Shown here piece after piece: positions 9,315-34,079 of a DNA stretch of 60,723 nt. Location: the IMG/VR virus record IMGVR_UViG_3300042868_002569, positions 1 through 60,723 of that record; one strand, written 5' to 3'. A program made the position numbers and the translations under genes. Position 1 is the first letter of the stretch. Every line of letters starts with the position of its first letter. The notes below the pieces were generated by a model that saw only the letters and a program-made list of their open reading frames with translations, made no database searches and was not told the origin of the DNA. Source of the stretch: a virus. Taxonomy: Duplodnaviria; Caudoviricetes.

Positions 9315-9341
9315 GACAAAGTGGCGTGGTGACACTATGTC
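9315..9341. promoter_or_regulatory. Early-region palindrome (PAL) copy 1
   Basis: GACAAAGTGGCG-TGG-TGACACTATGTC, just upstream of the -35 at 9354. Confidence 0.85.
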
Positions 9342-9353
9342 TGGAACTTATCC

Positions 9354-9382
9354 TTGACTTTTCCCACTTTATAGACTATAAT
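9354..9382 (+). promoter_or_regulatory. Sigma70-type promoter
   Basis: TTGACT-17 bp-TATAAT. Confidence 0.85.
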
Positions 9383-9420
9383 GTATGTATGAGATTGAGA
9401 ATGGTTTGCCCAATTTCACG

Positions 9421-9447
9421 GACAGAGTGTCATGTTGACAAAATGTC
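9421..9447. promoter_or_regulatory. PAL copy 2
   Basis: GACAGAGTGTCA-TGT-TGACAAAATGTC in the leader of the 9473 gene. Confidence 0.85.
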
Positions 9448-9472
9448 CAACTTAGCAAACTTCGGAGATTGT

Positions 9473-10066
9473 ATGAAAAATTCTAAACCCGTAGTACAAA
9501 CAGGCGAAATGGTTGAGATGTTTAACGACCAAGAAATCGCTACCCTTAACGCATCTGCTACTGCATACGCAGACGCAGACGACGACCAAAACGAAGCGGT
9601 CAAAGAAATCGCCAAGGTACTTGGTGCAAAGCCAACTTGGTCACGTTACGAAGCTGGTCGTATCCGCATCTTCGCAGTACTCAAAGAAATCGGCAAAGGT
9701 GACGAGGCTATCAAATCGGTTTGGCGTCGTATGCGTGCCAACTTGGGTATCACGATACCAAGCTCGGACAATCCTGAATCGCAGAAAAAAGCGGAACAGC
9801 GTGCCAAGGCGAAAGTTGAAGCTCGTAAGGTGTACGACGGAAAGTCAGATTCGGTTTTGCAAACTGAAATCAAAACTTTGCTTGCGAACCCAACTTTGGC
9901 GAACATTGCCAACGCAGGGAAAATCACGAAAGAGCTTGAGGTTCGCTTTGACGATGCGAACAAAGCTCACGAAGATGATATGAAGCAGTTGCGTGATAAC
10001 TTGCGTGATTGGATTAAGACTGCGACCTATAAGCAGTTGCAAGATGCTTGGCATCATGTTGCGTAA
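9473..10066 (+). CDS. Early hypothetical protein, paralogue B
   Basis: Start set at MKNSKPV (RBS GGAG); the longer track ORF (9233) runs through a terminator and a promoter; similar to 8084-8737. Confidence 0.75.
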   Translation: MKNSKPVVQTGEMVEMFNDQEIATLNASATAYADADDDQNEAVKEIAKVLGAKPTWSRYEAGRIRIFAVLKEIGKGDEAIKSVWRRMRANLGITIPSSDNPESQKKAEQRAKAKVEARKVYDGKSDSVLQTEIKTLLANPTLANIANAGKITKELEVRFDDANKAHEDDMKQLRDNLRDWIKTATYKQLQDAWHHVA

Positions 10067-10084
10067 GCATTGCTTGCGTAGGGA

Positions 10085-10108
10085 AAGCCCACTTCGGTGG
10101 GCTTTTTT
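10085..10108 (+). terminator. Rho-independent terminator
   Basis: AAGCCCAC-TTCG-GTGGGCTT followed by further Ts. Confidence 0.9.
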
Positions 10109-10117
10109 ATTACATTG

Positions 10118-10144
10118 GACAAAGTGTCACGATGACACTCTGTC
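10118..10144. promoter_or_regulatory. PAL copy 3
   Basis: GACAAAGTGTCA-CGA-TGACACTCTGTC just after the terminator. Confidence 0.9.
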
Positions 10145-10151
10145 CTTTTTG

Positions 10152-10196
10152 TTATGCTCTGGTACAGAGCATAATCTAGTTTGTTTTATTTGTCAA
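10152..10196 (-). promoter_or_regulatory. Leftward sigma70-type promoter overlapped by a perfect 10-3-10 palindrome
   Basis: Minus strand TTGACA (10196-91)-17 bp-TATGCT (10173-68); TTATGCTCTG-GTA-CAGAGCATAA at 10152-10174. Confidence 0.7.
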
Positions 10197-10198
10197 GG

Positions 10199-10227
10199 GG
10201 GAACTGGTGGTAAGCGACGCAATAGCC
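10199..10227 (+). repeat. 29 bp direct repeat, copy 2
   Basis: GGGAACTGGTGGTAAGCGACGCAATAGCC. Confidence 0.9.
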
Positions 10228-10232
10228 CATGC

Positions 10233-10561
10233 AATGTTCCGTAAGTTCCGTGTAATGTTCCAGCTAAGTCGTTGATTATTAAGTAATGTTCTAATGTTCC
10301 TAATGTTCCGAGCTTTTTAGTAACTTTGGAAACGGAGAAAGCAAGACCCCCTTCAGATAGTGCAAGTCCTACGCAACAACTAATTTTAGTAATGGAGCCC
10401 GTCTACTATACTTATTAGAACATTAGAACATTATATATATATAGCTATAAATCTATTTTGTTCCGCTTATAAATCAACAACTTAGCAATGTTCCGCACTC
10501 TCAGAACATTCTAGAACATTACGGAACATTCGGAACAGTCCTTATAAATCAACAACTTAGC
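10233..10561. repeat. Putative replication origin: iteron arrays, AT-rich core and IHF-consensus sites
   Basis: About 14 full or partial AATGTTCY/RGAACATT units in both orientations; TA run at 10432-10443; WATCAANNNNTTR matches at 10265-77 (-), 10472-84 and 10547-59; 21 bp direct repeat CTTATAAATCAACAACTTAGC at 10466 and 10541. Confidence 0.7.
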
Positions 10562-10573
10562 CTAGACAAGCAC

Positions 10574-10602
10574 TTGACATTGTAAGCTATCTGTGGTAAA
10601 CT
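10574..10602 (+). promoter_or_regulatory. Strong sigma70-type early promoter
   Basis: TTGACA-17 bp-TAAACT with extended -10 TG. Confidence 0.85.
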
Positions 10603-10638
10603 AGAGGGGTGAGTGGGAAATTTTTTTTATTAACTTAC

Positions 10639-10666
10639 GACAGAGTGTCACCTTTGACACTTTGTC
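10639..10666. promoter_or_regulatory. PAL copy 4
   Basis: GACAGAGTGTCA-CCTT-TGACACTTTGTC followed by ACCAAGGAG RBS. Confidence 0.9.
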
Positions 10667-10683
10667 CTACCAAGGAGATTGTG

Positions 10684-10878
10684 ATGGCTATGTGTTGGTG
10701 TTGCGGTGAAAGCTTCCCCGATGAACGCAAGGTGCTAGGTTACAGCGTGTGCTTAGTGTGTGGCGATGAATTTGCCCATGCTCGCAAGTTCACAGTAGCA
10801 TGCAGTAACAAACAAGGGTATGAGCTAATCACAGACATATCCTTCCTTAAACAACTTAACCCAAAGAGGACAACATGA
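10684..10878 (+). CDS. C4 zinc-finger protein (DksA/TraR-like finger pattern)
   Basis: CWCCGESFPDERKVLGYSVCLVC; start set at MAMCW after the RBS. Confidence 0.65.
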   Translation: MAMCWCCGESFPDERKVLGYSVCLVCGDEFAHARKFTVACSNKQGYELITDISFLKQLNPKRTT

Positions 10879-11102
10879 CAACAATCAGGCAAATCATTAA
10901 CGAGATGGATACGACATGGTCAATCCACGATGAAGCATCGCACCGAGGCTTTAATTACGCAGAACATTGGATAGAAGAAACAAAGACCTTATTGCGTGAC
11001 GAGGGCATGACCTTGCACTCTGTAATGAAAACTGCATATATAGAAGGCTTTTTGCATGGCTTTGAGCACAAGTTTGATAGCACTAACTACGAGGAGAAAT
11101 GA
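10875..11102 (+). CDS. Hypothetical protein
   Basis: 75 aa, RBS GAGGA, ATGA overlap. Confidence 0.65.
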   Translation: MTTIRQIINEMDTTWSIHDEASHRGFNYAEHWIEETKTLLRDEGMTLHSVMKTAYIEGFLHGFEHKFDSTNYEEK

Positions 11103-11293
11103 TGGCAACACACTATAAGGGCGAACGGATTGATGAACTGTTGGGAGAAATCTCAACCTTGCAAGAAGTCCTAGACCAAAACCGAGAGGCAGGTAACATT
11201 CTGCCTTTCACGGAAATTCATGTGGCACAAGCCTACGCTACGCTTGCGTTGCGGAAAGCACAACTAACTTCGCTAAGGGGTGGTGATGCCTAA
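11099..11293 (+). CDS. Hypothetical protein
   Basis: 64 aa, RBS GAGGAG, ATGA overlap. Confidence 0.65.
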   Translation: MMATHYKGERIDELLGEISTLQEVLDQNREAGNILPFTEIHVAQAYATLALRKAQLTSLRGGDA

Positions 11294-11567
11294 AGCTATA
11301 CCTAAACCTATTATTAACCCAAACAACTTAGGTCAAGAGAGGTCAATAAATGAGCTACTAGGTCAACCTATTCTCAAGGATAGTTTGGACAGTAGCGTTC
11401 TGGCATTGACCGCAGTAATTAACGACCTTGATATGGCAACCAAAAAGGGTGTGACTGCTGACCATCGCAGACTACTTATTTGGAAGGCAAGAAACCAAAC
11501 CGAAGTGATTATCAAACTATTGGACATAGTGTCAAAATGCCACTCTGTCTCACAGGAGAAACCATGA
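11286..11567 (+). CDS. Hypothetical protein
   Basis: ~93 aa; its 3' end reads through PAL copy 5. Confidence 0.55.
   Translation: MPKAIPKPIINPNNLGQERSINELLGQPILKDSLDSSVLALTAVINDLDMATKKGVTADHRRLLIWKARNQTEVIIKLLDIVSKCHSVSQEKP
11523..11549. promoter_or_regulatory. PAL copy 5
   Basis: GACATAGTGTCA-AAA-TGCCACTCTGTC followed by CAGGAG RBS. Confidence 0.85.
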
Positions 11568-11740
11568 GAACCATAGTTAAAGAACGACACCGCAAGAAAG
11601 AACCAAGACCGCAAGACCGTATGCTTGCAGACTTTTTGCGTGCACCAACGGCTGAACAGAAACGCAAAGTCATTGAGCAGTTTGCACCGTTTTACTTTGC
11701 ACTAACCCCACGACAGGAGGAACAAAATGAAACTGTTTGA
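11564..11740 (+). CDS. Small basic hypothetical protein
   Basis: Start MRTIVKERHRKK after RBS AGGAG. Confidence 0.6.
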   Translation: MRTIVKERHRKKEPRPQDRMLADFLRAPTAEQKRKVIEQFAPFYFALTPRQEEQNETV

Positions 11741-11864
11741 AGATAAAGCGGACTACGAGGACTTCGTAGATTTCGCAGTAGGAACAGCTTGGGTATTACT
11801 ACTCACACTCATAGCATCAGGTATTGCTTTGATGGTGATGGTAGCACTAGGTTGGGTATTATAA
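11727..11864 (+). CDS. Small single-pass membrane protein (45 aa, not in ORF track)
   Basis: RBS AGGAGG; MKLFEDKADYEDFVDFAVGTAWVLLLTLIASGIALMVMVALGWVL. Confidence 0.65.
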   Translation: MKLFEDKADYEDFVDFAVGTAWVLLLTLIASGIALMVMVALGWVL

Positions 11865-11880
11865 GTTGTTGTTTAACATA

Positions 11881-11908
11881 GACAAAGTGTCAATGGTGAC
11901 ACTAAGTC
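11881..11908. promoter_or_regulatory. PAL copy 6
   Basis: GACAAAGTGTCA-ATGG-TGACACTAAGTC followed by TTAACCAAGGAGAAGTAAATG. Confidence 0.9.
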
Positions 11909-11926
11909 TTAACCAAGGAGAAGTAA

Positions 11927-12466
11927 ATGGACTTACCAATTGAAGTAATCAACGCAGTAAAACCAAAACCAAAGGCACGCAAGCCGTATGCACGTAAGCT
12001 AACTAAGCGTATCTTGCAAGCTATCGGTAGTGGGCTACGCACTTCAGCATCTATTGCTAAGGCATTGGATGTTGATAAAGCTAGGATTCAGTCTAACTTG
12101 CATCACATCAAGAACCGTGGGCTTGTCCATGCAACCAAGCAAGAAGGCAAGGTCGAGCTCAAGTATCACTTGGCAACGGAGACGGCAAAGCCGAAGGCAC
12201 GCAAGCCATATGCCAAGCGTGTGGCAAAAGTGGCAAAAGTGGCAAAAGTGGCAACGGTGGAAGTAAAACCAACTCTAATGCTAGGCAATTACGCCCGAGA
12301 ACTAGAAGTTAAGGTAGACCACATCACGAGCAAGCTCGTTTACTTGGAACAATCCTTGATAGATAAGGAGAAGGAAGTGTGGACTCTTGAGTGCGAAGTC
12401 TTTGATAAGAAAGCAATTATTAAATACTTGGAAGAGAAACTCTTTGCCCTTGGGGTGCGTGTATGA
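11927..12466 (+). CDS. Winged-helix DNA-binding protein with basic repeats and C-terminal coiled coil
   Basis: ILQAI..GLRTSASIAKALDVDKARIQSNLHHIKNRGLV is a wHTH pattern; KPKARKPYA occurs twice. Confidence 0.7.
   Translation: MDLPIEVINAVKPKPKARKPYARKLTKRILQAIGSGLRTSASIAKALDVDKARIQSNLHHIKNRGLVHATKQEGKVELKYHLATETAKPKARKPYAKRVAKVAKVAKVATVEVKPTLMLGNYARELEVKVDHITSKLVYLEQSLIDKEKEVWTLECEVFDKKAIIKYLEEKLFALGVRV
12221..12254 (+). repeat. 9 bp in-frame tandem repeat (GTGGCAAAA) x3 plus partial
   Basis: Encodes VAKVAKVAKVA. Confidence 0.9.
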
Positions 12467-13407
12467 GCCTAACCTCAATGCCTAACCACGCAGGCTTGCC
12501 TGTGTTGAAGGACTACTACCAAGCCAAGCAACACTTTGAAAATGTGAAGTCTATTCGTGGTAGGAAAGAAGACATCAAGCCACTTGGTCGTGAACGCAGG
12601 TATGACCAATACCTCATTCAGCAAACCATGCGAGCCGACCAATCGCAGGGTGTCACGCATATAGATTATGTGTGTGCCTTGTATAACTCGCCTGTCGTGA
12701 CCTTCATGCAAGATGGGCGAGTCACGCTAAATAGTAGTTGGAATAGTGTGCCTACTCGCTGCGTTATGCAGTATGTATTACGTGAGCATGGTGTGGTGGA
12801 TAGCCAAAGCGGTAAGTGGTACTTCATCAACAAGCGGAAAGAGGCTTTCTTAATTGGCAAAGAGATAACTCTGAAGTTTGATGCCGAGGGTATCTTGACA
12901 GGCGATATGCAACAGGAACATAAGCACTTGCTTAAACGCAAAGTGATGAACGACCTGCGGAATAAGTACAAGTTCTTTACGGACTATGCCTATACCATGC
13001 TATCGCTTGACCCAAGCACGCTACGCTTGGAAGTTGCCGAGGCTAGTCATGGACTAAACTTTAAAACACAACCAACATTTATCGGGCATAGACAGGGGTA
13101 TTGGGTGCAACAAATGAAAGACCACACCCCACCCAATAACAGGGCAAAGCTTTTCCAAGCATTGGATAGACCTAACGCTTCGGCCGATGCGTTGTTGCTT
13201 TACGAGCTTGCAACTTGTATTGCGTATGTCGTGGGTAGGTATGACTACACAATATGTAAGTCTGTGTGTGAGCCTAAGGCTTTCATTGAATCATTTAATG
13301 AGATTCTTAAGTATCACTTTGCAGATGCAGTATTTGAGAAGGTAGAGCAACCGCTTGGCTCATTGTTTATTGACAAGAACGCTAAGTACATTCCATACAA
13401 GAAGTAA
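12463..13407 (+). CDS. Hypothetical protein
   Basis: 314 aa ORF; stop codon abuts PAL copy 7. Confidence 0.75.
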   Translation: MSLTSMPNHAGLPVLKDYYQAKQHFENVKSIRGRKEDIKPLGRERRYDQYLIQQTMRADQSQGVTHIDYVCALYNSPVVTFMQDGRVTLNSSWNSVPTRCVMQYVLREHGVVDSQSGKWYFINKRKEAFLIGKEITLKFDAEGILTGDMQQEHKHLLKRKVMNDLRNKYKFFTDYAYTMLSLDPSTLRLEVAEASHGLNFKTQPTFIGHRQGYWVQQMKDHTPPNNRAKLFQALDRPNASADALLLYELATCIAYVVGRYDYTICKSVCEPKAFIESFNEILKYHFADAVFEKVEQPLGSLFIDKNAKYIPYKK

Positions 13408-13434
13408 GACAGAGTGTCATGGTGACACTATGTC
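13408..13434. promoter_or_regulatory. PAL copy 7
   Basis: GACAGAGTGTCA-TGG-TGACACTATGTC starting right after the TAA. Confidence 0.9.
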
Positions 13435-13462
13435 CATTTAACCAAACCGAAAGGAACTAAAA

Positions 13463-14557
13463 ATGTCAGAAGTATTTATGCACCGCACCGTAACCCTCAA
13501 AGAAGCAGAGGACTTAATCGTATCAATGGGTTCTGATGCAACGGCTCACCTTGTAGGAGAACCGGGGGTTGGTAAGACCTCTATGTTCAACAATATTGTT
13601 AAGAGAACTGGCTATAAAGGGATTTACATTGACGCACCGAACATCGAGTTGGGCGAGTTGGGTGTTCCGATTCCCAATCACGAAACCAAAACGACACGCA
13701 TCTATCCAAACGAGCAATGGGGTTTTCATCTTGACGAGCCATTGGTTATCTTTGTTGACGAGTTCACCAAGGCACACCAAGCAGTTAAGAATATGTTGCA
13801 TCCGATGCTCAATGAACCAAGGCAAATCATGGGTATCCCATTGCACAAGGATACGATAGTCGTAACGGCAGGCAATTACTCAGGCGATGGTGTTGGCGAC
13901 CACATGATGAGTCACTCTCGCAATCGTATTACTGTGCTGACAGTCAAGAAACCACACGCAGGCTTTAACATTGATGGTTCTATTGACGATGATTCATGGG
14001 GTAAGTGGGCTATCTCAAGTGACATTGCACCTGAGATTCTTGCGTGGGTGAAGGAGAATCCGCACACTCTCGCATCCTATACTGACGCATCACAGGCAGG
14101 CAACAAGTATATCTTCAACCCAAAGGAATCGCAGAAGTCTTTTGTCAGTCCTCGTTCCCTTGCTAGAGCAAGTAATATTCTTAAGAAACGCCATATGGTC
14201 ACAGTCAACGCAACGATTACCGCACTACAGGGTACGATTGGAGCACCTGCTGCGAATGACTTGATGTCATATGTGGAAGTAGCCGATTCACTACCAACAT
14301 GGGAAAGTATTATCAAAGACCCGAAAACTGCACAAGTGCCAACATCACCTGCCGCTTTATGTCTATTGGCTTTCTCAGCAGTTCAGCGTGTGGACAGAGA
14401 AACTATTAGTAAGTTCTTTGAGTACCTACAACGCACACCGAAAGAGTTGCAGTCTGTGTTCTGTATTACAGGTATGAAGAACGACGATAAGAAGAAGCTA
14501 TTCCTTACTAGCCAATCATTCGTTGAGTGGATGCGTACCAATCAGTATTTATTCTAA
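13463..14557 (+). CDS. MoxR-type (dynein-related) AAA+ ATPase
   Basis: Walker A GEPGVGKT, Walker B IFVDE, sensor TAGN, R-finger region RNR, sensor-2 SPRS. Confidence 0.85.
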   Translation: MSEVFMHRTVTLKEAEDLIVSMGSDATAHLVGEPGVGKTSMFNNIVKRTGYKGIYIDAPNIELGELGVPIPNHETKTTRIYPNEQWGFHLDEPLVIFVDEFTKAHQAVKNMLHPMLNEPRQIMGIPLHKDTIVVTAGNYSGDGVGDHMMSHSRNRITVLTVKKPHAGFNIDGSIDDDSWGKWAISSDIAPEILAWVKENPHTLASYTDASQAGNKYIFNPKESQKSFVSPRSLARASNILKKRHMVTVNATITALQGTIGAPAANDLMSYVEVADSLPTWESIIKDPKTAQVPTSPAALCLLAFSAVQRVDRETISKFFEYLQRTPKELQSVFCITGMKNDDKKKLFLTSQSFVEWMRTNQYLF

Positions 14558-14584
14558 GACGGGGTGTCATGTTGACACTTTGTC
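14558..14584. promoter_or_regulatory. PAL copy 8
   Basis: GACGGGGTGTCA-TGT-TGACACTTTGTC right after the TAA, then AACCAAGGAGAAGTAAATG. Confidence 0.9.
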
Positions 14585-14601
14585 CAACCAAGGAGAAGTA
14601 A

Positions 14602-14877
14602 ATGGAAGAAAAAGAAATGAAAGCTAGGAAGGAACAGTTAATCCAAATGCGAGATGCATTGGGTTCTTACTTCGAGAAGGAAGATATGGAAGTGGGCATG
14701 GTAATGTCCGTGCTACTTACCATGCTAGTTGAAACAATGATAGAGCACGCAAAAATGGAACCTCATACTGCCATGCTTGTTATGACTAAGGCTGTTGCTC
14801 ATGCATACGAGGGACTTAACGATGATGAAGAAGATGATAACGATGACACTAAAGGAGAAACACAATGGCTAAACTAA
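14602..14877 (+). CDS. Hypothetical protein
   Basis: 91 aa with acidic tail, strong RBS. Confidence 0.65.
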   Translation: MEEKEMKARKEQLIQMRDALGSYFEKEDMEVGMVMSVLLTMLVETMIEHAKMEPHTAMLVMTKAVAHAYEGLNDDEEDDNDDTKGETQWLN

Positions 14878-16094
14878 CTGCCGAGCAACGCATCGAGAAG
14901 GCTCATGTCCGCTTGATGCGACACCCAAACTATTGCTTGTTCTCAGGCTTATTCATGGTGGGTAAAGTAACAGTCGATGATGCAGTCGAGACTGCTAAGA
15001 CCAACGGTGTAGATGTAATCTATGGTAGAGAATTCGTTGACCGACTTAACGACAAGGAACTTGCTTTCCTTATCTTGCATGAGAATATGCACAAGGCTTA
15101 TCGCCACTTGATTGTGTGGGAATCTCTGTATCGCAAGAATCCACAGCTTGCTAACATGGCGTGTGACTATGTAATCAATCTGCAAATCCGTGATTACGAC
15201 CCACAATGCAATGAAACCGAGATGCCCAAAGATGCAGATGGTGAAGTCATGGGCTTGATTGACGAACAGTATCGTGGCATGGATGCATACCAAGTCTATA
15301 TATTGCTAGAGAAGGAGGAAAAGCAAGGCGGTAGCGGTGGTAGCGGTGATGGTAGCGGTCAGCCACAAGGCAATGGGAATGGTAAGCCACAACTTGACGA
15401 CCACGATTGGGAAGGTGCAAAGCAACAGACCGCCCAAGAGAAGGAACAAACAACTCGTGAAATTGAAGGTGCGTTGCGACAAGGTGCGTTACTTGCAGGC
15501 AAGATGAAAGGTAATCTCAGCCGAGAGATGCAAGACTTACTCACACCCAAGGTGAATTGGCGAGATGCATTGCGTGACTTCGTCAAGTCCTCAACTCAAG
15601 GCAAAGACCAAACCACATGGCGAAGATTGCATAAGCGTTACATTGGTATGGATATTATTATGCCGAGCACCTATGACGAGAAGGTGGGTAGCATCATGGT
15701 AGCCGTAGACACATCAGGTTCTATCGGTGGTGCAGAGCTTGCTCAGTTCTTGAGTGAGGTCAAGTCTATCTGTGAAGAAGTAAGTCCTGAGAAGATTGAC
15801 TTAATCTATTGGGATACTGAAGTTGCAGGTCATGAAACCTATCAAAGCAACGAGCTATCAAACATTACGCAAGTAACAGAAGCTAAGGGTGGTGGCGGTA
15901 CAGACCCATCATGCGTGCCTAAGTATGTAACTAAAAACAGACTTGAGCCTGAGTGCGTAATCATGCTAACCGACGGCTACATTGGGAGACAGAATGAAAA
16001 CGATTATCAGATTGGTAAGCCGTTTATGTGGTGCATCAAAGGTAATCCAAACTTCAACGAAGATGTCGTTGGAAAGGTTGTCCATGTCGAATGA
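14865..16094 (+). CDS. Metallopeptidase-like + VWA domain protein (DUF2201-type), partner of the AAA ATPase
   Basis: HENMH (HExxH), NMACDYVIN, MIDAS DTSGS, GGGGT, LTDGY. Confidence 0.85.
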   Translation: MAKLTAEQRIEKAHVRLMRHPNYCLFSGLFMVGKVTVDDAVETAKTNGVDVIYGREFVDRLNDKELAFLILHENMHKAYRHLIVWESLYRKNPQLANMACDYVINLQIRDYDPQCNETEMPKDADGEVMGLIDEQYRGMDAYQVYILLEKEEKQGGSGGSGDGSGQPQGNGNGKPQLDDHDWEGAKQQTAQEKEQTTREIEGALRQGALLAGKMKGNLSREMQDLLTPKVNWRDALRDFVKSSTQGKDQTTWRRLHKRYIGMDIIMPSTYDEKVGSIMVAVDTSGSIGGAELAQFLSEVKSICEEVSPEKIDLIYWDTEVAGHETYQSNELSNITQVTEAKGGGGTDPSCVPKYVTKNRLEPECVIMLTDGYIGRQNENDYQIGKPFMWCIKGNPNFNEDVVGKVVHVE

Positions 16095-16341
16095 CGATAC
16101 CCCATTTATTATTAGCGTAGCTAATGTCGTGCTAGACAAAGACGAACTAGCCGAGCTCATGTCTTTCTTGCGTAGTAAGAAGTTCTTGTATCGTGAATAC
16201 AAAGGCGCAAACAAGGGCTTTGATGGTGGCGAGTATGACTTCTCGTTTGTCAGATGTGATGAGAAATCAAGGGTAGAGATTTCGCCTGTCAATGAAGCAT
16301 TGTGGTTGTACTTAAATACTTTTGGAAAGGAAACTAAATGA
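16084..16341 (+). CDS. Hypothetical protein
   Basis: Start set at MSNDDTPF. Confidence 0.55.
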   Translation: MSNDDTPFIISVANVVLDKDELAELMSFLRSKKFLYREYKGANKGFDGGEYDFSFVRCDEKSRVEISPVNEALWLYLNTFGKETK

Positions 16342-16523
16342 CTACCGTACCTAAAGGTCGTGCTAAAGATGGCAAGGTCAATGTCAGTCTTAATCCTGAG
16401 ACTGTGGAGATGCTTGCCGTTATCAAAGATAAGATGGCTGAGGATATGGGGTTCAAGCTAACCTATTCTCAAGCAATCCAACATTTAATTAAGTATTACG
16501 AAAACGACAGAGTGTCAAACTGA
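16338..16523 (+). CDS. Possible ribbon-helix-helix DNA-binding protein
   Basis: KVNVSL beta-strand then two helices (ETVEMLAVIKDKM / TYSQAIQHLIKY); 3' end overlaps PAL copy 9. Confidence 0.5.
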   Translation: MTTVPKGRAKDGKVNVSLNPETVEMLAVIKDKMAEDMGFKLTYSQAIQHLIKYYENDRVSN

Positions 16524-16532
16524 CACTCTGTC
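16506..16532. promoter_or_regulatory. PAL copy 9 (perfect 12-3-12)
   Basis: GACAGAGTGTCA-AAC-TGACACTCTGTC then TTAACCAAGGAGAAGTAAATG. Confidence 0.95.
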
Positions 16533-16550
16533 TTAACCAAGGAGAAGTAA

Positions 16551-17420
16551 ATGAACACGAATAACAGTATAAGTATTGCATCATCAGCGATGCTAGTTGA
16601 ACTAAGCATCAGCGGTTGGACTGCACGCAAGTTGGATAAGAAAGTATCTGCCGAGATTGATGTGGCTAAAGGCACGCAGACTCAAGCAGGTAATTACAAC
16701 AAGAACCTACTAGCAGGCACAGGGTTCTTGGATACTATCACTAAGTATGCCTCTAGTTCTAGAGCATGGCATATTTCTCAGACCTTACCTTGGTCAGATA
16801 GTGGTGTGCGTTTGTTACCTGTGTCTAACTTCATCGCTTACAAGGAACAACTAAATAAGCTAGAAGAAAACTACACCGCCCTAGTCCACAAGTTTGTAGA
16901 TGCGTACCCTAACTTAGTGACAGCGGCTGCGTTTCAATTGGGCAATCTATTCGACAGAACAGAATACCCCGATGCGGATAAGATATTCCACAAGTTCAAG
17001 TTCAGTTGTAACTTCTTTCCTGTCCCGCAGGCAGGTGACTTCCGAGTAGACATAGGCGAGGAAGCCAAGCAAGAACTAGCTAACTCATGCCAACACGCAT
17101 ACGAGGAAAGACTTAACAACGCTATGGGTGAGGTATGGCAACGATTGCATAAGTGTCTATCCAATGTTAGCGAAAGGCTTACGCTCAATAGTGACGGGGA
17201 AGAAAAGTTATTCCGAGATAGCTTGGTTGGTAATGCTCACGAACTAATCGAACTGCTGACACACCTTAACATCACGAAAGACCCCAAGCTTGAGCAAGCT
17301 CGCATAGAGTTGAACGAGGCTATCGGGCATCATGATGCCGATTCCCTACGCAGAAGTGTGGTTGCCAAAGAAGCAGTCAAGAGCAAAGTTGATTCAATCT
17401 TATCTAAATTTGAATTTTGA
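16551..17420 (+). CDS. Phage protein of a type found beside AAA/VWA pairs (possibly DUF3150-like)
   Basis: 289 aa; LVELSISGWTARKLD...TLPWSDSGVRLLP motifs; family assignment from memory. Confidence 0.6.
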   Translation: MNTNNSISIASSAMLVELSISGWTARKLDKKVSAEIDVAKGTQTQAGNYNKNLLAGTGFLDTITKYASSSRAWHISQTLPWSDSGVRLLPVSNFIAYKEQLNKLEENYTALVHKFVDAYPNLVTAAAFQLGNLFDRTEYPDADKIFHKFKFSCNFFPVPQAGDFRVDIGEEAKQELANSCQHAYEERLNNAMGEVWQRLHKCLSNVSERLTLNSDGEEKLFRDSLVGNAHELIELLTHLNITKDPKLEQARIELNEAIGHHDADSLRRSVVAKEAVKSKVDSILSKFEF

Positions 17421-17431
17421 AAGAAACAAAC

Positions 17432-18295: not shown

Positions 18296-18301
18296 ATAAA
18301 C

Positions 18302-18330
18302 TTGAATAAAAATAGCAGTAGCACTATACT
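18302..18330 (+). promoter_or_regulatory. Sigma70-type promoter of putative sRNA1
   Basis: TTGAAT-17 bp-TATACT; no convincing ORF before the downstream terminator. Confidence 0.75.
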
Positions 18331-18336
18331 GATAGT

Positions 18337-18534
18337 GAACTCTACCTCCTTGGTTAAGTTCCTTTCAAGGTTGCTCTTGGTTTTGCCTAGTAGATGTATT
18401 ACCAAGAGATGGCTAACGCCAGCAATCTCCCTTACCGTAAGTAGGATGCGGAATCTACTTTTGCCTACATAGCTTTAGCTAACATTGCATTACCTCCGAC
18501 CCCCTAGTCCTGCAAGATTAGGGGGTTTTCTTTT
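18337..18534 (+). ncRNA. Putative structured antisense sRNA (sRNA1) against early-gene ribosome-binding leaders
   Basis: Bounded by promoter and terminator; 18346-58 is the exact reverse complement of 11908-20 and 16532-44; 18357-66 is the reverse complement of 13449-58; internal stems present. Confidence 0.7.
18500..18534 (+). terminator. Rho-independent terminator
   Basis: CCCCCTAGTC-CTGCAA-GATTAGGGGG followed by TTTTCTTTT. Confidence 0.85.
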
Positions 18535-18535
18535 G

Positions 18536-25890: not shown

Positions 25891-25892
25891 AT

Positions 25893-27787: not shown

Positions 27788-29341
27788 ATGAAAATATTAA
27801 ATAATAACCAATTACTTATAACAACAAGGCGCCCACAATTAATAACTGAGTGCATACCAAAAAGCAAAATTATTGATTCTAATGGTGACTTGTACATGGT
27901 CGCCGTTCATTGGGGCTTAGACGAAGCTCAAACCTTGGCTAAACTTAAAGTCAAGAAGGTACCATCCCCAATCATGCGTGACTATAAGTGGCCTGGTGTT
28001 TTCCCACCAATGGCACACCAAAAAGATACTGCGGCATTCTTAACTCTTAATCAACGTGCATTCTGTTTTAACGAACAAGGTACAGGTAAGACGGCGTCTG
28101 CTATATGGGCGGCTGATTACTTGTTAAACATAGGTAAGATAAAGCGAGTGCTTATCATATGCCCGCTATCTATCATGCAATCAGCATGGCAGGCAGACTT
28201 GTTTAAGTTTGCAGTGCACCGCCGTGTAGGTGTGGCATACGGAGAGAAGCGCAAGCGCCAAGCGGTTATAGGTAACGATGCCGATTTTATTATTATTAAC
28301 TACGACGGTATTGAGATTGTTGCCGAGGACATAGCCCGTAATAAGTTTGACTTGATTATTATTGACGAAGCCAATGCTTACAAAACTCCTACAACAAAGC
28401 GCTGGAAAACACTTAACAGACTAATTACTCCAAACACTTGGGTATGGATGATGACAGGTACACCTGCGGCACAGAGCCCTACAGATGCTTACGGCTTGGC
28501 TAAGATGTGCGTGCCTGAGAAAGTAGACCGTTTCTTTGGTTCTTTCCGTGACCGAGTCATGGTTAATGTAAGTAAGTTTCGCTGGTTGCCAAGACCAAAC
28601 GCAGACCAAATAGTATTTGAATCTTTACAACCCGCCATTCGCTTTACTAAAGAAGAATGCTTAGACCTACCGGAGATAACCCATGTGTTTCGGGACGCCC
28701 CCCTTACTGCGCAACAGGAGAAATACTACAAAGTCCTCAAGAAAGATATGCTCATGGTGGCAGGAGGTGAAGAGATTAGTACTGTTAACGCCGCAACTAA
28801 TCTTAATAAACTGCTTCAAATTTCTGGTGGCGCTGTGTATTCTGATAACGGCAGCGTTATTGAGTTTGATGTTTCTAATCGCTTACGTGTTATCCAAGAA
28901 GTAATAGAAGAAGCAAGCCATAAAGTTCTTGTCTTTGTTCCGTTCACGCATACAATAGAACTACTCAAAGCGCATTTGAGAGGGGCAGGTATTCCCTGTG
29001 AAGTTATCAACGGTGCCGTGCCTGTTCACAAACGTACTGAAATATTTAAAGATTTTCAAGAAACAGAAAATATCAAGGTACTTATAATACAACCCCAGGC
29101 AGCTGCACACGGAGTCACACTAACTGCTGCTAACGTAATCATTTGGTATTCACCAGTAACATCTATTGAGACTTACCTGCAGGCTAACGCCCGTATTGAC
29201 CGTAATGGTCAGAAGAACACAATGACTGTTGTGCACATTAAGGGTAGTCCCGTAGAGACACGGTTATACGGAATGTTGCAAAATAAACTAGATGTACACA
29301 CAAAAATAATTGACCTGTACAATAACGAAATAAATACTTGA
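27788..29341 (+). CDS. SNF2-like superfamily 2 helicase
   Basis: EQGTGKT, IIDEA, MTGTP, HGVTLT, QANARIDRNGQ. Confidence 0.9.
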   Translation: MKILNNNQLLITTRRPQLITECIPKSKIIDSNGDLYMVAVHWGLDEAQTLAKLKVKKVPSPIMRDYKWPGVFPPMAHQKDTAAFLTLNQRAFCFNEQGTGKTASAIWAADYLLNIGKIKRVLIICPLSIMQSAWQADLFKFAVHRRVGVAYGEKRKRQAVIGNDADFIIINYDGIEIVAEDIARNKFDLIIIDEANAYKTPTTKRWKTLNRLITPNTWVWMMTGTPAAQSPTDAYGLAKMCVPEKVDRFFGSFRDRVMVNVSKFRWLPRPNADQIVFESLQPAIRFTKEECLDLPEITHVFRDAPLTAQQEKYYKVLKKDMLMVAGGEEISTVNAATNLNKLLQISGGAVYSDNGSVIEFDVSNRLRVIQEVIEEASHKVLVFVPFTHTIELLKAHLRGAGIPCEVINGAVPVHKRTEIFKDFQETENIKVLIIQPQAAAHGVTLTAANVIIWYSPVTSIETYLQANARIDRNGQKNTMTVVHIKGSPVETRLYGMLQNKLDVHTKIIDLYNNEINT

Positions 29342-29366
29342 CAAGGTCAAGTTCTTGCACTAATAT
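29336..29366 (+). promoter_or_regulatory. Sigma70-type promoter, replication operon 2, with a palindrome over the -35
   Basis: TTGACA (29338-43)-17 bp-TAATAT (29361-66); ACTTGAC-AAG-GTCAAGT at 29336-52. Confidence 0.8.
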
Positions 29367-29399
29367 AAATAAAACACTCACAACCTAAGGAAACCAAAA

Positions 29400-29798
29400 A
29401 TGGCAGATGATATTTCTGTAGATAAACTAGTCTCCGTCTTTATTAAGATACGAGACACACGTGATGAAGAAGAGCGTGCATGGGAAGCCAAGAAAGCTGA
29501 CTACACAGAACAGCTAGAGCTTATCAATCAACAATTACTTGAGATTTGTAAAAGTACTGATGCCGATAGTATTCGTACTGCGCATGGCACAGTAATCCGT
29601 TCGGTTAAATCTCGTTACTGGACTAACGACTGGGAGCATTTCCACAAGTTTATGTTGGAGTGGGAAGCACCTGAGTTATTAGAGAAGCGTATACATCAAA
29701 GCAACATGAAACAGTTTTTAGAAGACAACCCCGGTACACTGCCAGCCGGTTTAAATATGGACAGTGCGTACTCAATCACAGTAAGGAGAAGTAAATGA
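29400..29798 (+). CDS. Replication-module protein (N-terminal coiled coil), function unknown
   Basis: 132 aa; RBS TAAGGA. Confidence 0.7.
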   Translation: MADDISVDKLVSVFIKIRDTRDEEERAWEAKKADYTEQLELINQQLLEICKSTDADSIRTAHGTVIRSVKSRYWTNDWEHFHKFMLEWEAPELLEKRIHQSNMKQFLEDNPGTLPAGLNMDSAYSITVRRSK

Positions 29799-30903: not shown

Positions 30904-30909
30904 TTTACA

Positions 30910-30964
30910 GGGGTAGCTAGTTTGACGGAACGAACAGGGGATTCGCCGCACCCCGTGCTACCCC
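30910..30964 (+). promoter_or_regulatory. Structured element in the primase leader
   Basis: Outer stem GGGGTAGC/GCTACCCC enclosing inner stem GGGG/CCCC. Confidence 0.5.
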
Positions 30965-30989
30965 ATCTTTATTGCGGACAGAGGCGACA

Positions 30990-33812
30990 ATGGCTACAAC
31001 AGATTTACTAAAAGTAGTGTTACCTCCCGAGGGGGAAGGTGTTTACTGCTTGCTAGGGTTAAAACAAGGGGGTGGCTATCCAAAACAGTTGTGGGCTGAA
31101 ACGCTTGCAGATGCCGAGAAACATATAGCTGACTTGCTAAACGATTTATATGACGTGTATTTTGCGTGTGCTAAATACACTAATGAAGCTGAAGGACGAA
31201 TACAAAAAAATAGTAATTACTTTAAGAGCTTTTGGTTGGACGTTGATTGTGGTGTTGGAAAGCCATACGCAGACCAAGAAGAAGGATTAGCTGCGCTTAA
31301 AGAGTTTTGTATAAAGATAGACTTACCGTTGCCTACAGTAGTTAATTCCGGTCGTGGTGTGCATGCGTATTGGAACTTAACTACTACAATCGACCGTGAG
31401 CATTGGCTTCCTGTAGCAACTCGTATCAAAGCACTGTGTGAAGAACATGGCTTTGAAGCTGACGGTAGTCGCACTGCTGAGAGTGCTTCGGTATTGCGTG
31501 TGCCTGAGACTTGGAACTTTAAGAACGACCCGCCTTTCCCAGTAGAAATCTTAAAGATTGCTAAGGATATTGAGTACGACGAAGTTAAACGTCGACTCGG
31601 GGTGTTAGTTGCACCTAGTTACATCCCACGTAGTTTTAGCGAAGCGTCTCAAGCAATACGCAGTAACATACAAAGCCGCTTTAAAACCATTATGCTTAAG
31701 ACCATAGATGGTAGTGGATGCGCACAGATTAAAAACTTGGTTGAGAACCAAGACAATATGGATGAGCCACGCTGGAGAGCAGTGCTTAGTATTGCAGCAC
31801 ACTGTATTGACAGAGACACAGCTATCCATATGGTTAGTAATGGGCACCCTGATTACAACGCCGAAGCTACAGAAGAAAAGGCTAATGAGATTAAGGGCCC
31901 CTACACTTGCGCAAAGATGGAGTATTACAACCCAGGGTTCTGTGGTGACTGCCCACACAAGGACAAGATTAAGAACCCTATTCAGTTAGGCAATGAAGTA
32001 ATTGCCGCCGAAACAAACGAGATAGTTGAAAAAGAAGAAGATGGCACCACATCTGTATATACAGTACCTGAGTTGCCTTATCCGTACTTTCGAGGTAAGA
32101 ACGGTGGTGTGTACCGTGCAACTACGGAAGAAGATGGCGAGCCATCGTTAATTTATGAACATGACTTGTACGTAGTTAAGCGTTTATTTGACCCACGTAA
32201 AGGCGATGCAATTTGGATTAGGTTGCACTTACCTAGGGATGGCGTACGTGAGTTTTCTATCCCACAAACAGAGGCACTAACTCACGAGAAGTTGCGTGAT
32301 AAGTTAGCTTGGTACGGCGTTGTTGCTGCTAAGAAGCAGATGGACAACATCATGAACTATTTAATAACGTTTGTAAAAGAACTACAACATAAATCAGAGG
32401 TAGAAATAATGAGAACACAATTTGGATGGACAGACGACAACGACCAATTTATTCTAGGAGACCAAGAAATATCTGCGGATAAAGTTTCGTACAGTCCACC
32501 GTCAAGCTCTACAGGTAGCTTAGCTACATTCATGGCTCCAACAGGTGACTTTAAAGAATGGCAACGTATCGCAAACATTTACAACGCTCCTGGGTTTGAG
32601 CCACATGCATTTGGATTTTTTACTGCTTTCGGCGCACCGTTGCTTAAGCACCTCAACCTACGTGGCGCTATTATTAACTTGATTAACAATCGTTCAGGTA
32701 CAGGTAAGTCGACTATTCTTAAGATGTGCAACAGCGTATGGGGGCACCCTGAAGAGTTAATGCTCCAATGGAAAGATACGCAGAACTCTATGATTCACCG
32801 TCTTGGCATAATGAACACGCTTCCTGTGACTATTGACGAGATTACAAAGCTATCAGGCGACCACTTTTCTGATTTGGTATATAGCATATCCCAAGGACGT
32901 GGCAAGAATCGCATGCAACAACATGACAACGCCGAGCGCCTCAACACAACAAAGTGGTCAACCATTGCGCTATGTTCTGCCAACGCTTCTTTCTACGATA
33001 AATTAGCTACGTTAAAAGCTACACCAGACGGCGAGATGATGCGTCTTATTGAATACAAGATTGAGATGACTGACACTCTTTCCAAAGAAGAAGCTGACAC
33101 AATTTTTAACGGCTTGTACACCCACTACGGGCACGCTGGGTTTGAGTACGCTAAGTATCTTGTAGCTAACTTAGAGACAGCAATTGATACAGTTATGCAA
33201 GTTCAGCAGAAGTTAGACCAAGAGGTAGGGTTTACCAGTAGAGAACGCTTTTGGTCAGGCGTAGCTGCATGTAACATTGCAGGTGCTTTGATGGCTAAAG
33301 ACCTAGGCATTATTCCTGACTTCAACGTTGGTCGTGTCTACAAGTGGTTGACACAGATGCTTAAGACTATGCGCACCGACATCAAGGCTCCAGCCAATAA
33401 CAACATAACCTCTGTGTTTGAGTTTATGAACGACCACCGTGCTGAGACTTTGGTTATTAACGGCAACGCAGACCGTCGGTCAGGTATGCAAGAGCTACCT
33501 ATTGCCGAGCCTAAGTTTAGTGATATTAAGGTACGTATAGAACCGGATACAGGTGTGCTTATGTTAAGAGCTAAAGCCTTCCGTGATTTCTGCGCTAAAA
33601 ACCAGATTACTTTGAAAGATTTACTGGATGGATTACACCAAGACAAAATCTTTATCAAGCTAGACAAGAAGCGTATTGGCAAAGGCACCAAGATTCCTTG
33701 TGGTTCAGTCGACGTATATATTTTTAACATGGAGCACGATGATTTCTTTGATACCAAGGAAGCCATAATTGAGGCGGTTAAAGACTCTACAAATGCTGAT
33801 ACACGGAATTGA
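30990..33812 (+). CDS. Primase-helicase (RepB-like primase N-terminus, DUF927-type helicase region)
   Basis: WLDVD, SGRGVHAYW, LRVPETWN, PYTC..CGDCPH, QFGW, SGTGKST, TIDE; start at MATTDLL. Confidence 0.85.
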   Translation: MATTDLLKVVLPPEGEGVYCLLGLKQGGGYPKQLWAETLADAEKHIADLLNDLYDVYFACAKYTNEAEGRIQKNSNYFKSFWLDVDCGVGKPYADQEEGLAALKEFCIKIDLPLPTVVNSGRGVHAYWNLTTTIDREHWLPVATRIKALCEEHGFEADGSRTAESASVLRVPETWNFKNDPPFPVEILKIAKDIEYDEVKRRLGVLVAPSYIPRSFSEASQAIRSNIQSRFKTIMLKTIDGSGCAQIKNLVENQDNMDEPRWRAVLSIAAHCIDRDTAIHMVSNGHPDYNAEATEEKANEIKGPYTCAKMEYYNPGFCGDCPHKDKIKNPIQLGNEVIAAETNEIVEKEEDGTTSVYTVPELPYPYFRGKNGGVYRATTEEDGEPSLIYEHDLYVVKRLFDPRKGDAIWIRLHLPRDGVREFSIPQTEALTHEKLRDKLAWYGVVAAKKQMDNIMNYLITFVKELQHKSEVEIMRTQFGWTDDNDQFILGDQEISADKVSYSPPSSSTGSLATFMAPTGDFKEWQRIANIYNAPGFEPHAFGFFTAFGAPLLKHLNLRGAIINLINNRSGTGKSTILKMCNSVWGHPEELMLQWKDTQNSMIHRLGIMNTLPVTIDEITKLSGDHFSDLVYSISQGRGKNRMQQHDNAERLNTTKWSTIALCSANASFYDKLATLKATPDGEMMRLIEYKIEMTDTLSKEEADTIFNGLYTHYGHAGFEYAKYLVANLETAIDTVMQVQQKLDQEVGFTSRERFWSGVAACNIAGALMAKDLGIIPDFNVGRVYKWLTQMLKTMRTDIKAPANNNITSVFEFMNDHRAETLVINGNADRRSGMQELPIAEPKFSDIKVRIEPDTGVLMLRAKAFRDFCAKNQITLKDLLDGLHQDKIFIKLDKKRIGKGTKIPCGSVDVYIFNMEHDDFFDTKEAIIEAVKDSTNADTRN

Positions 33813-33990
33813 CTTTAAGATAAATTGGCGTAATTTTGTGGTGGGGTCTTCGTTTTTTATACCGTGCTTAGACCACGAACACGCTCGAGAACAGATTCAC
33901 AGGGCTACAAAACGATTGAAATACCCTATTAAAACGCAAATAGTGATAGAAAAAGGCATCTATGGTTTGCGTGTTTGGCGAATTAAGTAG
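33793..33990 (+). CDS. Small protein after the primase
   Basis: INWRNFVVGSSFFIPCLD...GLRVWR. Confidence 0.65.
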   Translation: MLIHGIDFKINWRNFVVGSSFFIPCLDHEHAREQIHRATKRLKYPIKTQIVIEKGIYGLRVWRIK

Positions 33991-34002
33991 TATCATTCAC
34001 CT

Positions 34003-34079
34003 GTAGACGATTGGTTTCGGCTACTTTCCTTAGTGAGTGAGTGATTTAAGCCCCGGCGTAAAACCCCGGGGTCTTTTTT
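34003..34079 (+). ncRNA. Putative antisense sRNA (sRNA2) against replication-operon leaders
   Basis: Possible promoter TTGCGT (33967-72)-18 bp-TATCAT (33991-96); 34012-22 is the reverse complement of 18654-64; 34025-33 and 34037-43 are reverse complements of 29385-93 and 29375-81. Confidence 0.6.
34050..34079 (+). terminator. Rho-independent terminator at the replication/virion convergence
   Basis: CCCCGG-9 nt-CCGGGG followed by TCTTTTTT. Confidence 0.8.

Follow-up and report, generated by a model that had tools for sequence, protein, structure and literature searches.

Two small RNA genes closing the early and replication blocks of an uncultured lake-water phage, and their putative targets in the phage's own leaders

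Introduction

What might two short non-coding units, each placed at the end of a rightward gene block, do in a tailed phage with no detected lysogeny genes? The question is raised by the IMG/VR record IMGVR_UViG_3300042868_002569, a virus record of 60,723 nucleotides (nt) with a CheckV completeness of 96%, which was analysed over its whole length and is referred to here as the window. The early block of this phage (~8.0–18.3 kb) ends in a unit of ~190 nt at 18337–18534, named sRNA1 here (sRNA, small RNA), and its replication block (18.6–34.0 kb) ends in a second unit of ~75 nt at ~34003–34079, named sRNA2. A first-pass annotation of the window had described a palindrome array with standardized leaders in the early genes, and had taken the two units for antisense RNAs directed at leaders of their own blocks, acting either as a temporal shut-off or as an RNA-based immunity that maintains a carrier state. 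Of these two options, shut-off, whether temporal or by feedback, fares better, and sRNA2 most likely restrains the replication genes of the phage itself.

Antisense RNAs that phages direct at themselves are known mainly from temperate phages, in which they act on antirepressor or lysis-lysogeny genes. A trans-acting sRNA aimed at the leaders of the replication operons of a lytic-type phage was not seen in the literature covered by a non-exhaustive search, which included excerpts of a review (PMC12197685).

A conserved RNA gene at the end of the replication block

sRNA2 follows a conserved small open reading frame (ORF; 33817–33990, +, C-terminal residues GLRVWRIK), which lies behind the DUF927 primase gene and has a stop codon abutting the −10 box of the RNA (TATCAT, 33991–33996, +). 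The RNA itself (34003–34079, +) is predicted to begin with a 5′ hairpin (GUAG…CUAC, 34003–34024), followed by the single-stranded CU-rich stretch UUUCCUUAGUGAGUGAGUG (34025–34043) and an intrinsic terminator (34050–34071) with a U tail running to 34079. In uncultured relatives the small ORF is 63–79% identical, the terminator is kept, and a −10 box reading TATTAT, TATGAT or TAAGAT occupies the same non-coding place. Of 15 primase loci that could be evaluated, 10 carry the unit (one further locus is cut by the contig end), as do all five long related records. Its two-hairpin pairing is found in 93.5% of cells, versus 37–50% with slid partners, and 7 of the 14 pairs show compensatory change. A default Rfam search of the whole window at the gathering score returned no match for sRNA1 or sRNA2. 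Below the cut-offs, sRNA2 resembles anti-hemB (RF02837; 21.0 bits, E = 0.005, model positions 1–81 of 81, cut-off 49.5) and ErsA (RF01719; 21.1 bits, cut-off 50).

Covariation of sRNA2 with two replication leaders

The replication block appears to be read as two transcripts, each beginning with a leader to which sRNA2 could pair, as the first-pass annotation had noticed. The first would start from the promoter-like sequence TTGATT-17-TATACT (18603–18631, +), a consensus match. Its leader, L1, taken with the start codon of the VRR-NUC-like gene 18664–18978 (18640–18666, +), is devoid of a Shine-Dalgarno sequence, and sRNA2 complements AATCACT (18640–18646) and AGCCGAAACCA (18654–18664) within it. 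The second would start from TTGACA-17-TAATAT (29338–29366, +), read from sequence, and in its leader L2, taken with the start of gene 29400–29798 (29375–29402, +), sRNA2 complements CACTCAC (29375–29381, 7 nt) and CTAAGGAAA (29385–29393, 9 nt). The 11-mer AGCCGAAACCA, which covers the end of leader L1 and reaches into the start codon, is the longest sRNA2 complement in the genome; taken alone, it is close to chance, as about 1.3 such matches are expected by our arithmetic. Because neither this 11-mer nor the energy ranking within the single genome singles out the leaders, the evidential weight lies on the comparison of relatives.

The single-stranded stretch of sRNA2 varies from lineage to lineage, each version being complementary to leader L2 of its own genome, where the homologue of gene 29400 starts. 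The leader sequence so matched is CUAAGGAAA in the window, CUUGAAAGGA in G001, AACCUAAAGGAA in G002, ACUGUAAAGGA in G003, AAGGAAAAGC in G004, AAGGAAAAGUA in G005 and ACUUGAAGGA in L124 (G and L followed by a number are our handles for relatives). For the comparisons of own with cross pairs, the L1 and L2 sites were set beforehand by homology, not picked by score, and near-identical loci were collapsed (L115, L116, L117 and L118 with G001; L120 and L123 with L121; L013 and L019 with L012; L022, L100 and L101 with L021; L089 and L094 with L047; and others).

Across 10 lineages, sRNA2 pairs with its own leader L2 at a mean of −17.8 kcal/mol, cross pairs averaging −11.8 kcal/mol. The total for own pairs is reached in 0 of 500,000 permutations, a figure that, like the other permutation figures given here, is not an exact probability, the lineages being related. 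Nine of the ten leaders have their best partner in the own sRNA, and seven of the ten sRNAs have theirs in the own leader, with longest perfect own helices of 9, 7, 12, 11, 10, 11, 7, 8, 10 and 7 nt. An earlier test with six lineages had given 2 of 720 permutations. For leader L1, at the VRR-NUC homologue of six lineages, the own total is reached by the true assignment only (1/720), with perfect own helices of 11, 7, 6, 10, 11 and 11 nt. The matching of sRNA2 to its targets across lineages is genuine covariation, of the kind that the first-pass annotation had proposed to look for, and the anti-leader reading of this RNA, as judged from sequence comparison, is well supported.

One could still suppose that neither unit acts in trans, unit 2 being the 3′ untranslated region and terminator of its operon, unit 1 an unrelated structured RNA, and the complementarity a matter of chance. 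The near-chance frequency of the individual exact matches of unit 2 (~1.3 expected 11-mers) and an energy ranking that does not single out the leaders agree with such a reading; against it stand the permutation results at two pre-specified homologous sites (0/500,000 and 1/720) and the conservation of a non-coding −10-like box directly past the stop codon. This reading is already disfavoured, and we regard it as very improbable.

At one relative's locus (L029:8030–8060), the first replication gene starts ~7 nt past a −10 box, so that its mRNA would be leaderless; in the window, the homologue of this gene is preceded by 26 nt of leader that lack a Shine-Dalgarno sequence.

A larger structured RNA at the end of the early block

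sRNA1 is preceded by the promoter-like sequence TTGAAT-17-TATACT (18302–18330, +), a consensus match, and relatives carry a TAnnnT box, often TGATATACT, at the same place. Its 5′ hairpin (GAACU…AGUUC, 18337–18361, +) has the loop ACCUCCUU and holds the anti-leader stretch 18346–18358. The conserved core (18374–18468, +) is predicted to consist of five helices, two of which are pseudoknots: P1 (18374–18381/18401–18408), P2 (18411–18413/18418–18420), P3 (18435–18438/18448–18451), PK1 (18389–18395/18453–18459), which joins the P1 loop to the stretch past P3, and PK2 (18441–18445/18464–18468), which joins the P3 loop to the 3′ tail. The junction CAAUCUCCC (18423–18431) lies between P2 and P3. The 3′ module (18470–18534, +) comprises a small hairpin, the single-stranded stretch UUACCUCCGA (18490–18499) and a strong intrinsic terminator (18498–18527) with its U tail.

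The folding of sRNA1 beats 200 of 200 shuffles (z = −3.5). Pairing of the core was counted in a 12-sequence alignment that omits L029, which MAFFT had misaligned, and the counts exclude P1, the 5′ strand of which is shifted between alignment subgroups; 94.4% of 231 cells are paired, versus 28–38% with slid partners, compensatory change is seen in 9 of 20 pairs, and both pseudoknots are paired in 100% of cells. Judged by eye, P1 changes in sequence across the relatives and keeps its helix. On this comparative evidence, sRNA1 is a compact structured RNA that goes beyond a simple seed carrier, and our guess is that the double-pseudoknot core serves as a scaffold for stability or protein binding. 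A riboswitch was considered for the core and rejected, as no anti-terminator partner for the terminator stem was found by eye and Rfam gave no match.

The central 100 nt of sRNA1 are conserved in 10 of 80 PolA loci searched with blastn, the PolA-locus comparisons having been made on 80 loci out of the 388 IMG/VR stretches with a PolA relative. A motif scan of IMG/VR gave 25 loci, of which 19 have the whole unit followed by its terminator and the lineage's own palindrome, and six are unrelated; more diverged versions occur in L029, L043, L044, L042 and L138. Both units are, in short, RNA genes conserved in uncultured relatives, in line with the first-pass reading of them as RNAs. The same motif gave five hits in the genome collection: L146 is real, L145 was read and is unrelated, and three were judged to be chance matches by organism only. 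The L146 hit (L146:2530–2700) lies on a 5.3-kb contig in a sediment bin labelled 'uncultured archaeon' and has the full sRNA1 unit with the L104-lineage palindrome; wrong binning of a phage contig is the most likely explanation.

sRNA1 and the early leaders

The complementarity of sRNA1 to early leaders, which had been claimed for the unit from the outset, is plain in the window. Over its full 13 nt, the segment 18346–18358 is perfectly complementary to two leaders (at 11908 and at 16532), and it also complements 10 nt at 14586 and 9 nt at 10669. These complements rank among the longest of the genome, a third 13-mer, at 5157, being in an unrelated place. Among the relatives, L112 has matches of 11 and 10 nt beside its own palindromes, L017 one of 10 nt, and L012 and L050 matches of 9 nt; these are the best or near-best exact matches in those lineages. 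Up to three CU-rich elements surround the core (the 5′ hairpin loop, the junction CAAUCUCCC and, in some lineages, the pre-terminator stretch), and the hairpin at the 5′ end, with its anti-Shine-Dalgarno loop, is shared by the window with the L017, L012/L050, L112/L090, L104 and L029 groups.

Own pairs were compared with cross pairs in several ways. With the start of the 16551 homologue as the target, in 10 lineages, 1193 of 200,000 permutations reached the own total; for whole sRNA1 and the same start in 14 lineages, some close pairs being kept, own pairs averaged −18.8 kcal/mol and cross pairs −16.1 kcal/mol (277 of 200,000 permutations), and the own partner came first in 5/14 rows and 5/14 columns; when every early start region was taken as a target, in 11 lineages, the figure was 523 of 200,000. 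The CU-rich element of sRNA1 seems to us to track the Shine-Dalgarno region type of its genome, the lineage-specific matching being modest. For this RNA the first-pass proposal holds in part: complementarity to early leaders recurs in the window and several relatives, but the comparisons of own with cross pairs gave mixed results, weak to moderate, the own partner being best in only 0–5 of 10–14 lineages. The targeting of early leaders by sRNA1 is accordingly plausible but weaker.

Alternatively, the two RNAs might act mainly on the host, as anti-Shine-Dalgarno mimics or as sponges for host mRNAs, Hfq or ribosomal components, the match to phage leaders being a by-product of the strength of Shine-Dalgarno sequences there. 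The sRNA1 loop ACCUCCUU has what we take to be the sequence of the 3′ end of 16S rRNA, CU-rich elements occur up to three times in sRNA1, cross-lineage pairs of this RNA are often as good as its own, and sRNA2 has its sub-threshold likeness to bacterial CU-rich sRNAs (anti-hemB, 21.0/49.5; ErsA, 21.1/50). Host action would not, however, readily account for the pairing of sRNA2, which reaches past the Shine-Dalgarno core into the lineage-specific flanks of two phage leaders, nor for the 11-nt match to leader L1 of the window, which has no Shine-Dalgarno sequence. We consider a mainly host-directed role to be doubtful, with perhaps one chance in many in its favour.

Proposed mechanism and points that weigh against it

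In the explanation that we favour, the rightward early and replication blocks would be read from host-type promoters, and the small RNA genes at their ends, sRNA1 and sRNA2, would each be transcribed from a −10 box of their own up to an intrinsic terminator. sRNA2 would pair in trans with both replication transcripts, over the Shine-Dalgarno/start-codon region of their first cistrons (the VRR-NUC gene at 18664 in one and the gene at 29400 in the other), and this pairing would occlude ribosome binding, such that accumulation of sRNA2 may lead to feedback on, or shut-off of, the replication genes. sRNA2 may also form the 3′ end of its own operon mRNA, because it lies downstream of the target operon with no intervening terminator. 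The 5′ hairpin loop of sRNA1 appears to mimic an anti-Shine-Dalgarno sequence and matches the standardized early leaders, and sRNA1 probably dampens the translation of early genes in the same way, a step that is less secure. Taken as a whole, with trans pairing of sRNA2 at the replication leaders, damping by sRNA1 and protein sites at the palindromes, this explanation has, in our estimation, slightly better than even prospects.

Several observations weigh against it. In a duplex-energy scan of the window, leaders L1 and L2 for sRNA2 and the palindrome-associated leaders for sRNA1 fall outside the 12 best places; many coding windows reach −26 to −31 kcal/mol, versus −25.3 for L1 and −20.6 for L2, and single-genome prediction would therefore miss these targets. 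A poor energy rank is the usual weakness of such prediction. The relatedness of the compared lineages makes the permutation figures inexact, the promoters are consensus matches only, and sRNA2 is missing from the five most distant of the 15 primase loci (~53% primase identity). The objections to sRNA1 are more numerous. Any CU-rich RNA will match Shine-Dalgarno sequences; no exact match of at least 9 nt to an early leader was found for sRNA1 in L029, L104, L109 and L016; and the comparison of its 5′ region with palindrome-adjacent leaders in five lineages was not significant (15/120 permutations). The own partner was best in only 2/10 rows and 3/10 columns at the start region of the 16551 homologue, and in 0/11 rows and 1/11 columns over all early start regions. 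Relatives with ~60% PolA identity have no sRNA1 at this junction, the L047 and L016 groups are without its 5′ hairpin, and pairing at ribosome-binding sites does not explain the conserved sRNA1 core.

Feedback or immunity

The other option of the first-pass annotation was that the RNAs confer immunity. RNAs of a resident or first-infecting phage would then block translation from the early and replication leaders of incoming genomes of the same lineage (superinfection exclusion), the RNA-leader pairs being the specificity determinants, comparable to those of c4 heteroimmunity in P1 and P7, and a carrier state being optional. Seeds and targets diverge between lineages with each matched to its own partner, as would be expected of specificity determinants, while the flanking features are conserved (small ORF at 63–79% identity, −10 box and terminator kept); host-type promoter-like sequences are found at both RNAs, and an iteron-like cluster is present. 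Compensated drift under simple feedback would, however, yield identical covariation. The lack of an integrase, already remarked on in the first pass, extends to resolvase and S24 repressor genes, none of which was found in the window, and no lysogeny, partition or maintenance function was recognized among the 10 replication-block proteins scanned. No PolA relative was found in 185,579 species genomes, and the sole real match to the sRNA1 motif in the genome collection is the 5.3-kb phage contig in an unrelated bin. We judge immunity of this kind to be unlikely, and a carrier state found no backing in lysogeny or plasmid-maintenance genes or in the species genomes.

A fuller version would see a non-temperate clade with lineage-specific RNA immunity, in which two co-diversifying sRNA-leader pairs, one per block (early and replication), shut off translation of incoming genomes of the same lineage and also time the phage's own passage from early to replication to late expression, the sRNA1 core being a new RNA class. 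The pseudoknotted core would then make the RNA long-lived or recruit a protein, and rapid co-diversification of seed and target would fit exclusion between related phages. No result obtained here favours this version over feedback with compensatory drift, and we assign it the same low probability.

The palindrome array of the early region

The palindrome GGACAnAGTGTCA-N3/4-TGACACTnTGTCC (PAL; 27–28 nt) occurs in ten copies, all of them in the early block (9315–18562). The core pattern has 16 matches over both strands (9 sites), where 0.41 are expected and 100 shuffles gave at most 2; a half-site search gave 24 hits, 19 of which assemble the ten sites, the other five being isolated degenerate hits elsewhere. 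A Shine-Dalgarno sequence and start codon follow within 15–28 nt after seven of the ten, and the array with its standardized leaders is thus as the first-pass annotation had it. The leader (A)ACCAAGGAG is present at four of the ten PALs, and the near-identical leader (C/T)TAACCAAGGAGAAGTAAATG at three of the seven that precede a gene start.

PAL 1 (9315–9341, +) ends 13 bp upstream of the −35 element of a sigma-70-like early promoter, TTGACT-17-TATAAT (9354–9382, +; 11/12 consensus matches). PAL 2 (9421–9448, +) lies in the 5′ leader of gene 9473–10066, the part of the leader beyond it containing GGAGATTG, and PAL 3 (10118–10144, +) lies ~10 nt past a terminator hairpin (~10084–10108). A second sigma-70-like early promoter, TTGACA-17-TAAACT with a TG extension (10574–10602, +; consensus match), precedes PAL 4 (10639–10666, +), behind which comes the leader CTACCAAGGAGATTGTG-ATG of the Zn-ribbon gene 10684–10878. 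PAL 5 (11523–11549, +) overlaps the 3′ end of ORF 11280–11567 and precedes a start codon at 11565. PAL 6 with the standard leader CTTAACCAAGGAGAAGTAA-ATG (11881–11929, +) stands before a winged helix-turn-helix (wHTH) gene (11927–12466), and PAL 9 with the same leader (16506–16553, +) before gene 16551–17420; each holds a 13-nt sRNA1 complement. PAL 7, the leader of which has GAAAGGAACT (13408–13465, +), stands before the AAA ATPase gene 13463–14557 with a 10-nt complement to sRNA1 18357–18366, and PAL 8 with the leader CAACCAAGGAGAAGTAA-ATG (14558–14604, +) also has a 10-nt sRNA1 complement. PAL 10 (18536–18562, +) lies 9 nt past the terminator of sRNA1, with the −35 element of the replication promoter 41 bp downstream. 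PALs are found on both sides of the promoter at 9354, at about +30 of that at 10574 and 41 bp upstream of that at 18603, the others being between cistrons. The three PALs with no gene start behind them are 9–55 nt past the three terminator hairpins of the region, beside the promoter-like sites 9354 and 18603.

Relatives share this arrangement, and some lineages have switched the core at all sites together, with ACGGAT, GTTACA, GCGACA or CGACA replacing GTGTCA and the sites still palindromic. Variation was counted over 57 unique GTGTCA-type sites. Stem positions 5–7 show A/T variation only, mostly uncompensated (at position 6, A.A in 29/57 and G-C in 1/57); mismatches are of the G.U type in 23 cases and of the A.C type in 16, with no clear excess of the former; and the centre is free in sequence, measuring 3 nt in 53 sites and 4 nt in four. 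Because the stem varies without compensation between A and T only and the cores switch in concert, we lean towards PAL being a site for sequence-specific recognition by a phage protein, with a dimer on DNA as the favoured form. Most likely, PALs bind a phage-encoded dimeric protein that would mark or limit early transcription units.

It is also conceivable, and more of a contender than the rival readings of the sRNAs, though still short of an even chance, that PAL works as RNA, either as a hairpin 5′ of the ribosome-binding site for processing or stabilization or as a translational operator for a phage RNA-binding protein, or that PAL and leader together form a mobile regulatory cassette promoting gene shuffling, as the PeSL motifs of T4-type phages do. 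The Shine-Dalgarno sequence lies 3–8 nt beyond seven of the ten PALs, a hairpin would tolerate a centre of 3 or 4 nt better than would a DNA-bound dimer, and the frequent A.A mismatch at stem position 6 is a systematic asymmetry. For a shuffling cassette it can be said that the genes between the PALs at 10639 and 13408 vary among relatives and that wHTH gene 11927 gave 0 tblastn hits in them. Yet the restriction of positions 5–7 to A/T with hardly any compensating G-C, the lack of a clear surplus of G.U-type over A.C-type mismatches and the unconstrained centre are not what an RNA stem would lead one to expect; nor are the three PALs past terminators or upstream of promoters, which have no ribosome-binding site, and the genome-wide concerted shift of the core, which is as expected for a protein and its site.

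A candidate for the PAL-binding protein is the 61-residue ribbon-helix-helix-like product (family read from sequence) of the conserved gene 16338–16523 (+). The 3′ end of this gene overlaps PAL 9, and in relatives the gene always lies just before the palindrome preceding the 16551 homologue. Its standing as the factor that sets PAL specificity is weakened by its DNA-reading β-strand KVNVSLN, which is nearly invariant across PAL types, and the product of wHTH gene 11927 is a poor candidate for PAL binding, no homologue having been found in the fetched relatives. The latter gene contains three tandem copies of GGCAAAAGT (12223–12249), and its product repeats the peptide KPKARKPYA(R)K.

The phage, its relatives and other features of the window

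Late and structural genes, including those for terminase and a 2137-residue polyvalent protein, are placed at both genome ends and read leftward. The early block consists of small ORFs and genes for an AAA ATPase and a metallopeptidase/VWA protein, and the replication block encodes a VRR-NUC-like nuclease, a family-A DNA polymerase (PolA), an exonuclease, an SNF2 helicase and the DUF927 primase. No tRNA or tmRNA genes were found in the window. The cultured phages nearest by PolA protein, Rhizobium phage RHph_TM3_14A and Pseudomonas phage KPP25, are only ~35% identical, a search of the early-region DNA against cultured phages gave no match, and no literature on this clade was found. A PolA relative is encoded in 388 of 392 candidate IMG/VR stretches. 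The runs that hold the phage sequence are lake-water metagenomes (24 listed, all DNA), and the phage is apparently an uncultured, non-temperate phage of lake water.

The iteron-like cluster pointed out in the first pass is real and is found in the stretch that separates PAL 3 from the early promoter at 10574. Of 17 matches to AATGTTCY in the genome, 11, in both orientations, fall within 10233–10530, the genome-wide expectation being 5.4. An iteron-type origin is possible there. Several long G runs (GGGGGG, GGGGGTGGGGGG and GGGGGGCGGGGG) occur at 7770–7930, in the non-coding stretch from which the leftward late genes and the first rightward early gene diverge; they may mark a packaging site or a genome end, or serve as some other signal. 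A physical genome end near sRNA1 was also considered, as the contigs of many relatives start 300–740 bp upstream of PolA; the idea was dropped because these starts are heterogeneous. G003, the record of L016, is a 66.7-kb relative classed as having direct terminal repeats; its ends lie between polymerase and primase, so that the replication block spans the record ends.

A third structured RNA lies at 30910–30977 (+), where the Rfam int-alpA model (RF02996) scores 38.5 bits against a cut-off of 35.8, a match that was obtained with permissive filters only and missed by the default gathering search. It lies directly upstream of the DUF927 primase gene, after a gene for an 80-residue helix-turn-helix protein, and is conserved in relatives (L121:2922–2988, 49.7 bits; L138:15895–15961, 44.0 bits; L140:3734–3807, 35.9 bits).

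Significance

The case provides an example, comparative and open to testing, of a phage sRNA that co-varies with two targets, in a clade of abundant uncultured lake-water phages. sRNA1 is a second, larger structured RNA, with two pseudoknots and absent from Rfam, and it shares the early region with a palindrome array that switches between lineages. If the proposed pairing is real, post-transcriptional feedback would join the known ways in which tailed phages time their replication module, and the clade would offer natural sets of orthogonal sRNA-leader pairs.

Comparison with known systems

C4-type RNAs, to which the antisense CI RNA of phage P4 is similar, are cut by RNase P from the leader of the operon that they regulate and form part of a lysogenic immunity region. 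In excerpts of PMC12197685, c4 of phages P1 and P7 is a short antisense RNA in which two exposed segments pair with the ribosome-binding region of its own operon. As far as this excerpted description goes, the window resembles c4 in that exposed RNA segments complement the phage's own ribosome-binding regions, with two target segments, and in that seed and target differ between related phages; the likeness is one of mechanism, not of homology, and the Rfam C4 model matched neither unit up to E = 10. Unlike c4, sRNA2 closes its block at the 3′ end and has a −10 box and an intrinsic terminator of its own, and its putative targets are the first cistrons of two separate replication transcripts in a phage with no detected lysogeny genes.

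The sar RNA of phage P22 overlaps its target and comes from the opposite strand, whereas sRNA1 and sRNA2 lie on the same strand as their putative targets, 1.8–15 kb away. In the part of PMC12197685 that covers it, sar is an antisense RNA blocking translation initiation of a phage gene and is tabled as 'trans'.

In its layout of 5′ hairpin, single-stranded CU-rich stretch and intrinsic terminator, sRNA2 is like the CU-rich anti-Shine-Dalgarno sRNAs of Proteobacteria, namely anti-hemB of Burkholderia (RF02837) and ErsA of Pseudomonas (RF01719), and the end-to-end sub-threshold Rfam match covers 33997–34079 exactly. It differs from them in that it scores below their cut-offs and is not a member of either family, and in being phage-encoded and matched to phage leaders.

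The promoter-stem-loop cassettes (PeSL) of T4-type phages, in the excerpts of the sources that describe them, are repeated before many early genes (PMC2839356; PMC4122927). On that partial description, PAL with its leader is comparable as a standard motif repeated before many early genes, including variable ones. It differs from PeSL in that the palindrome carries a ribosome-binding leader instead of a promoter, and in that its core switches between lineages and stays palindromic.

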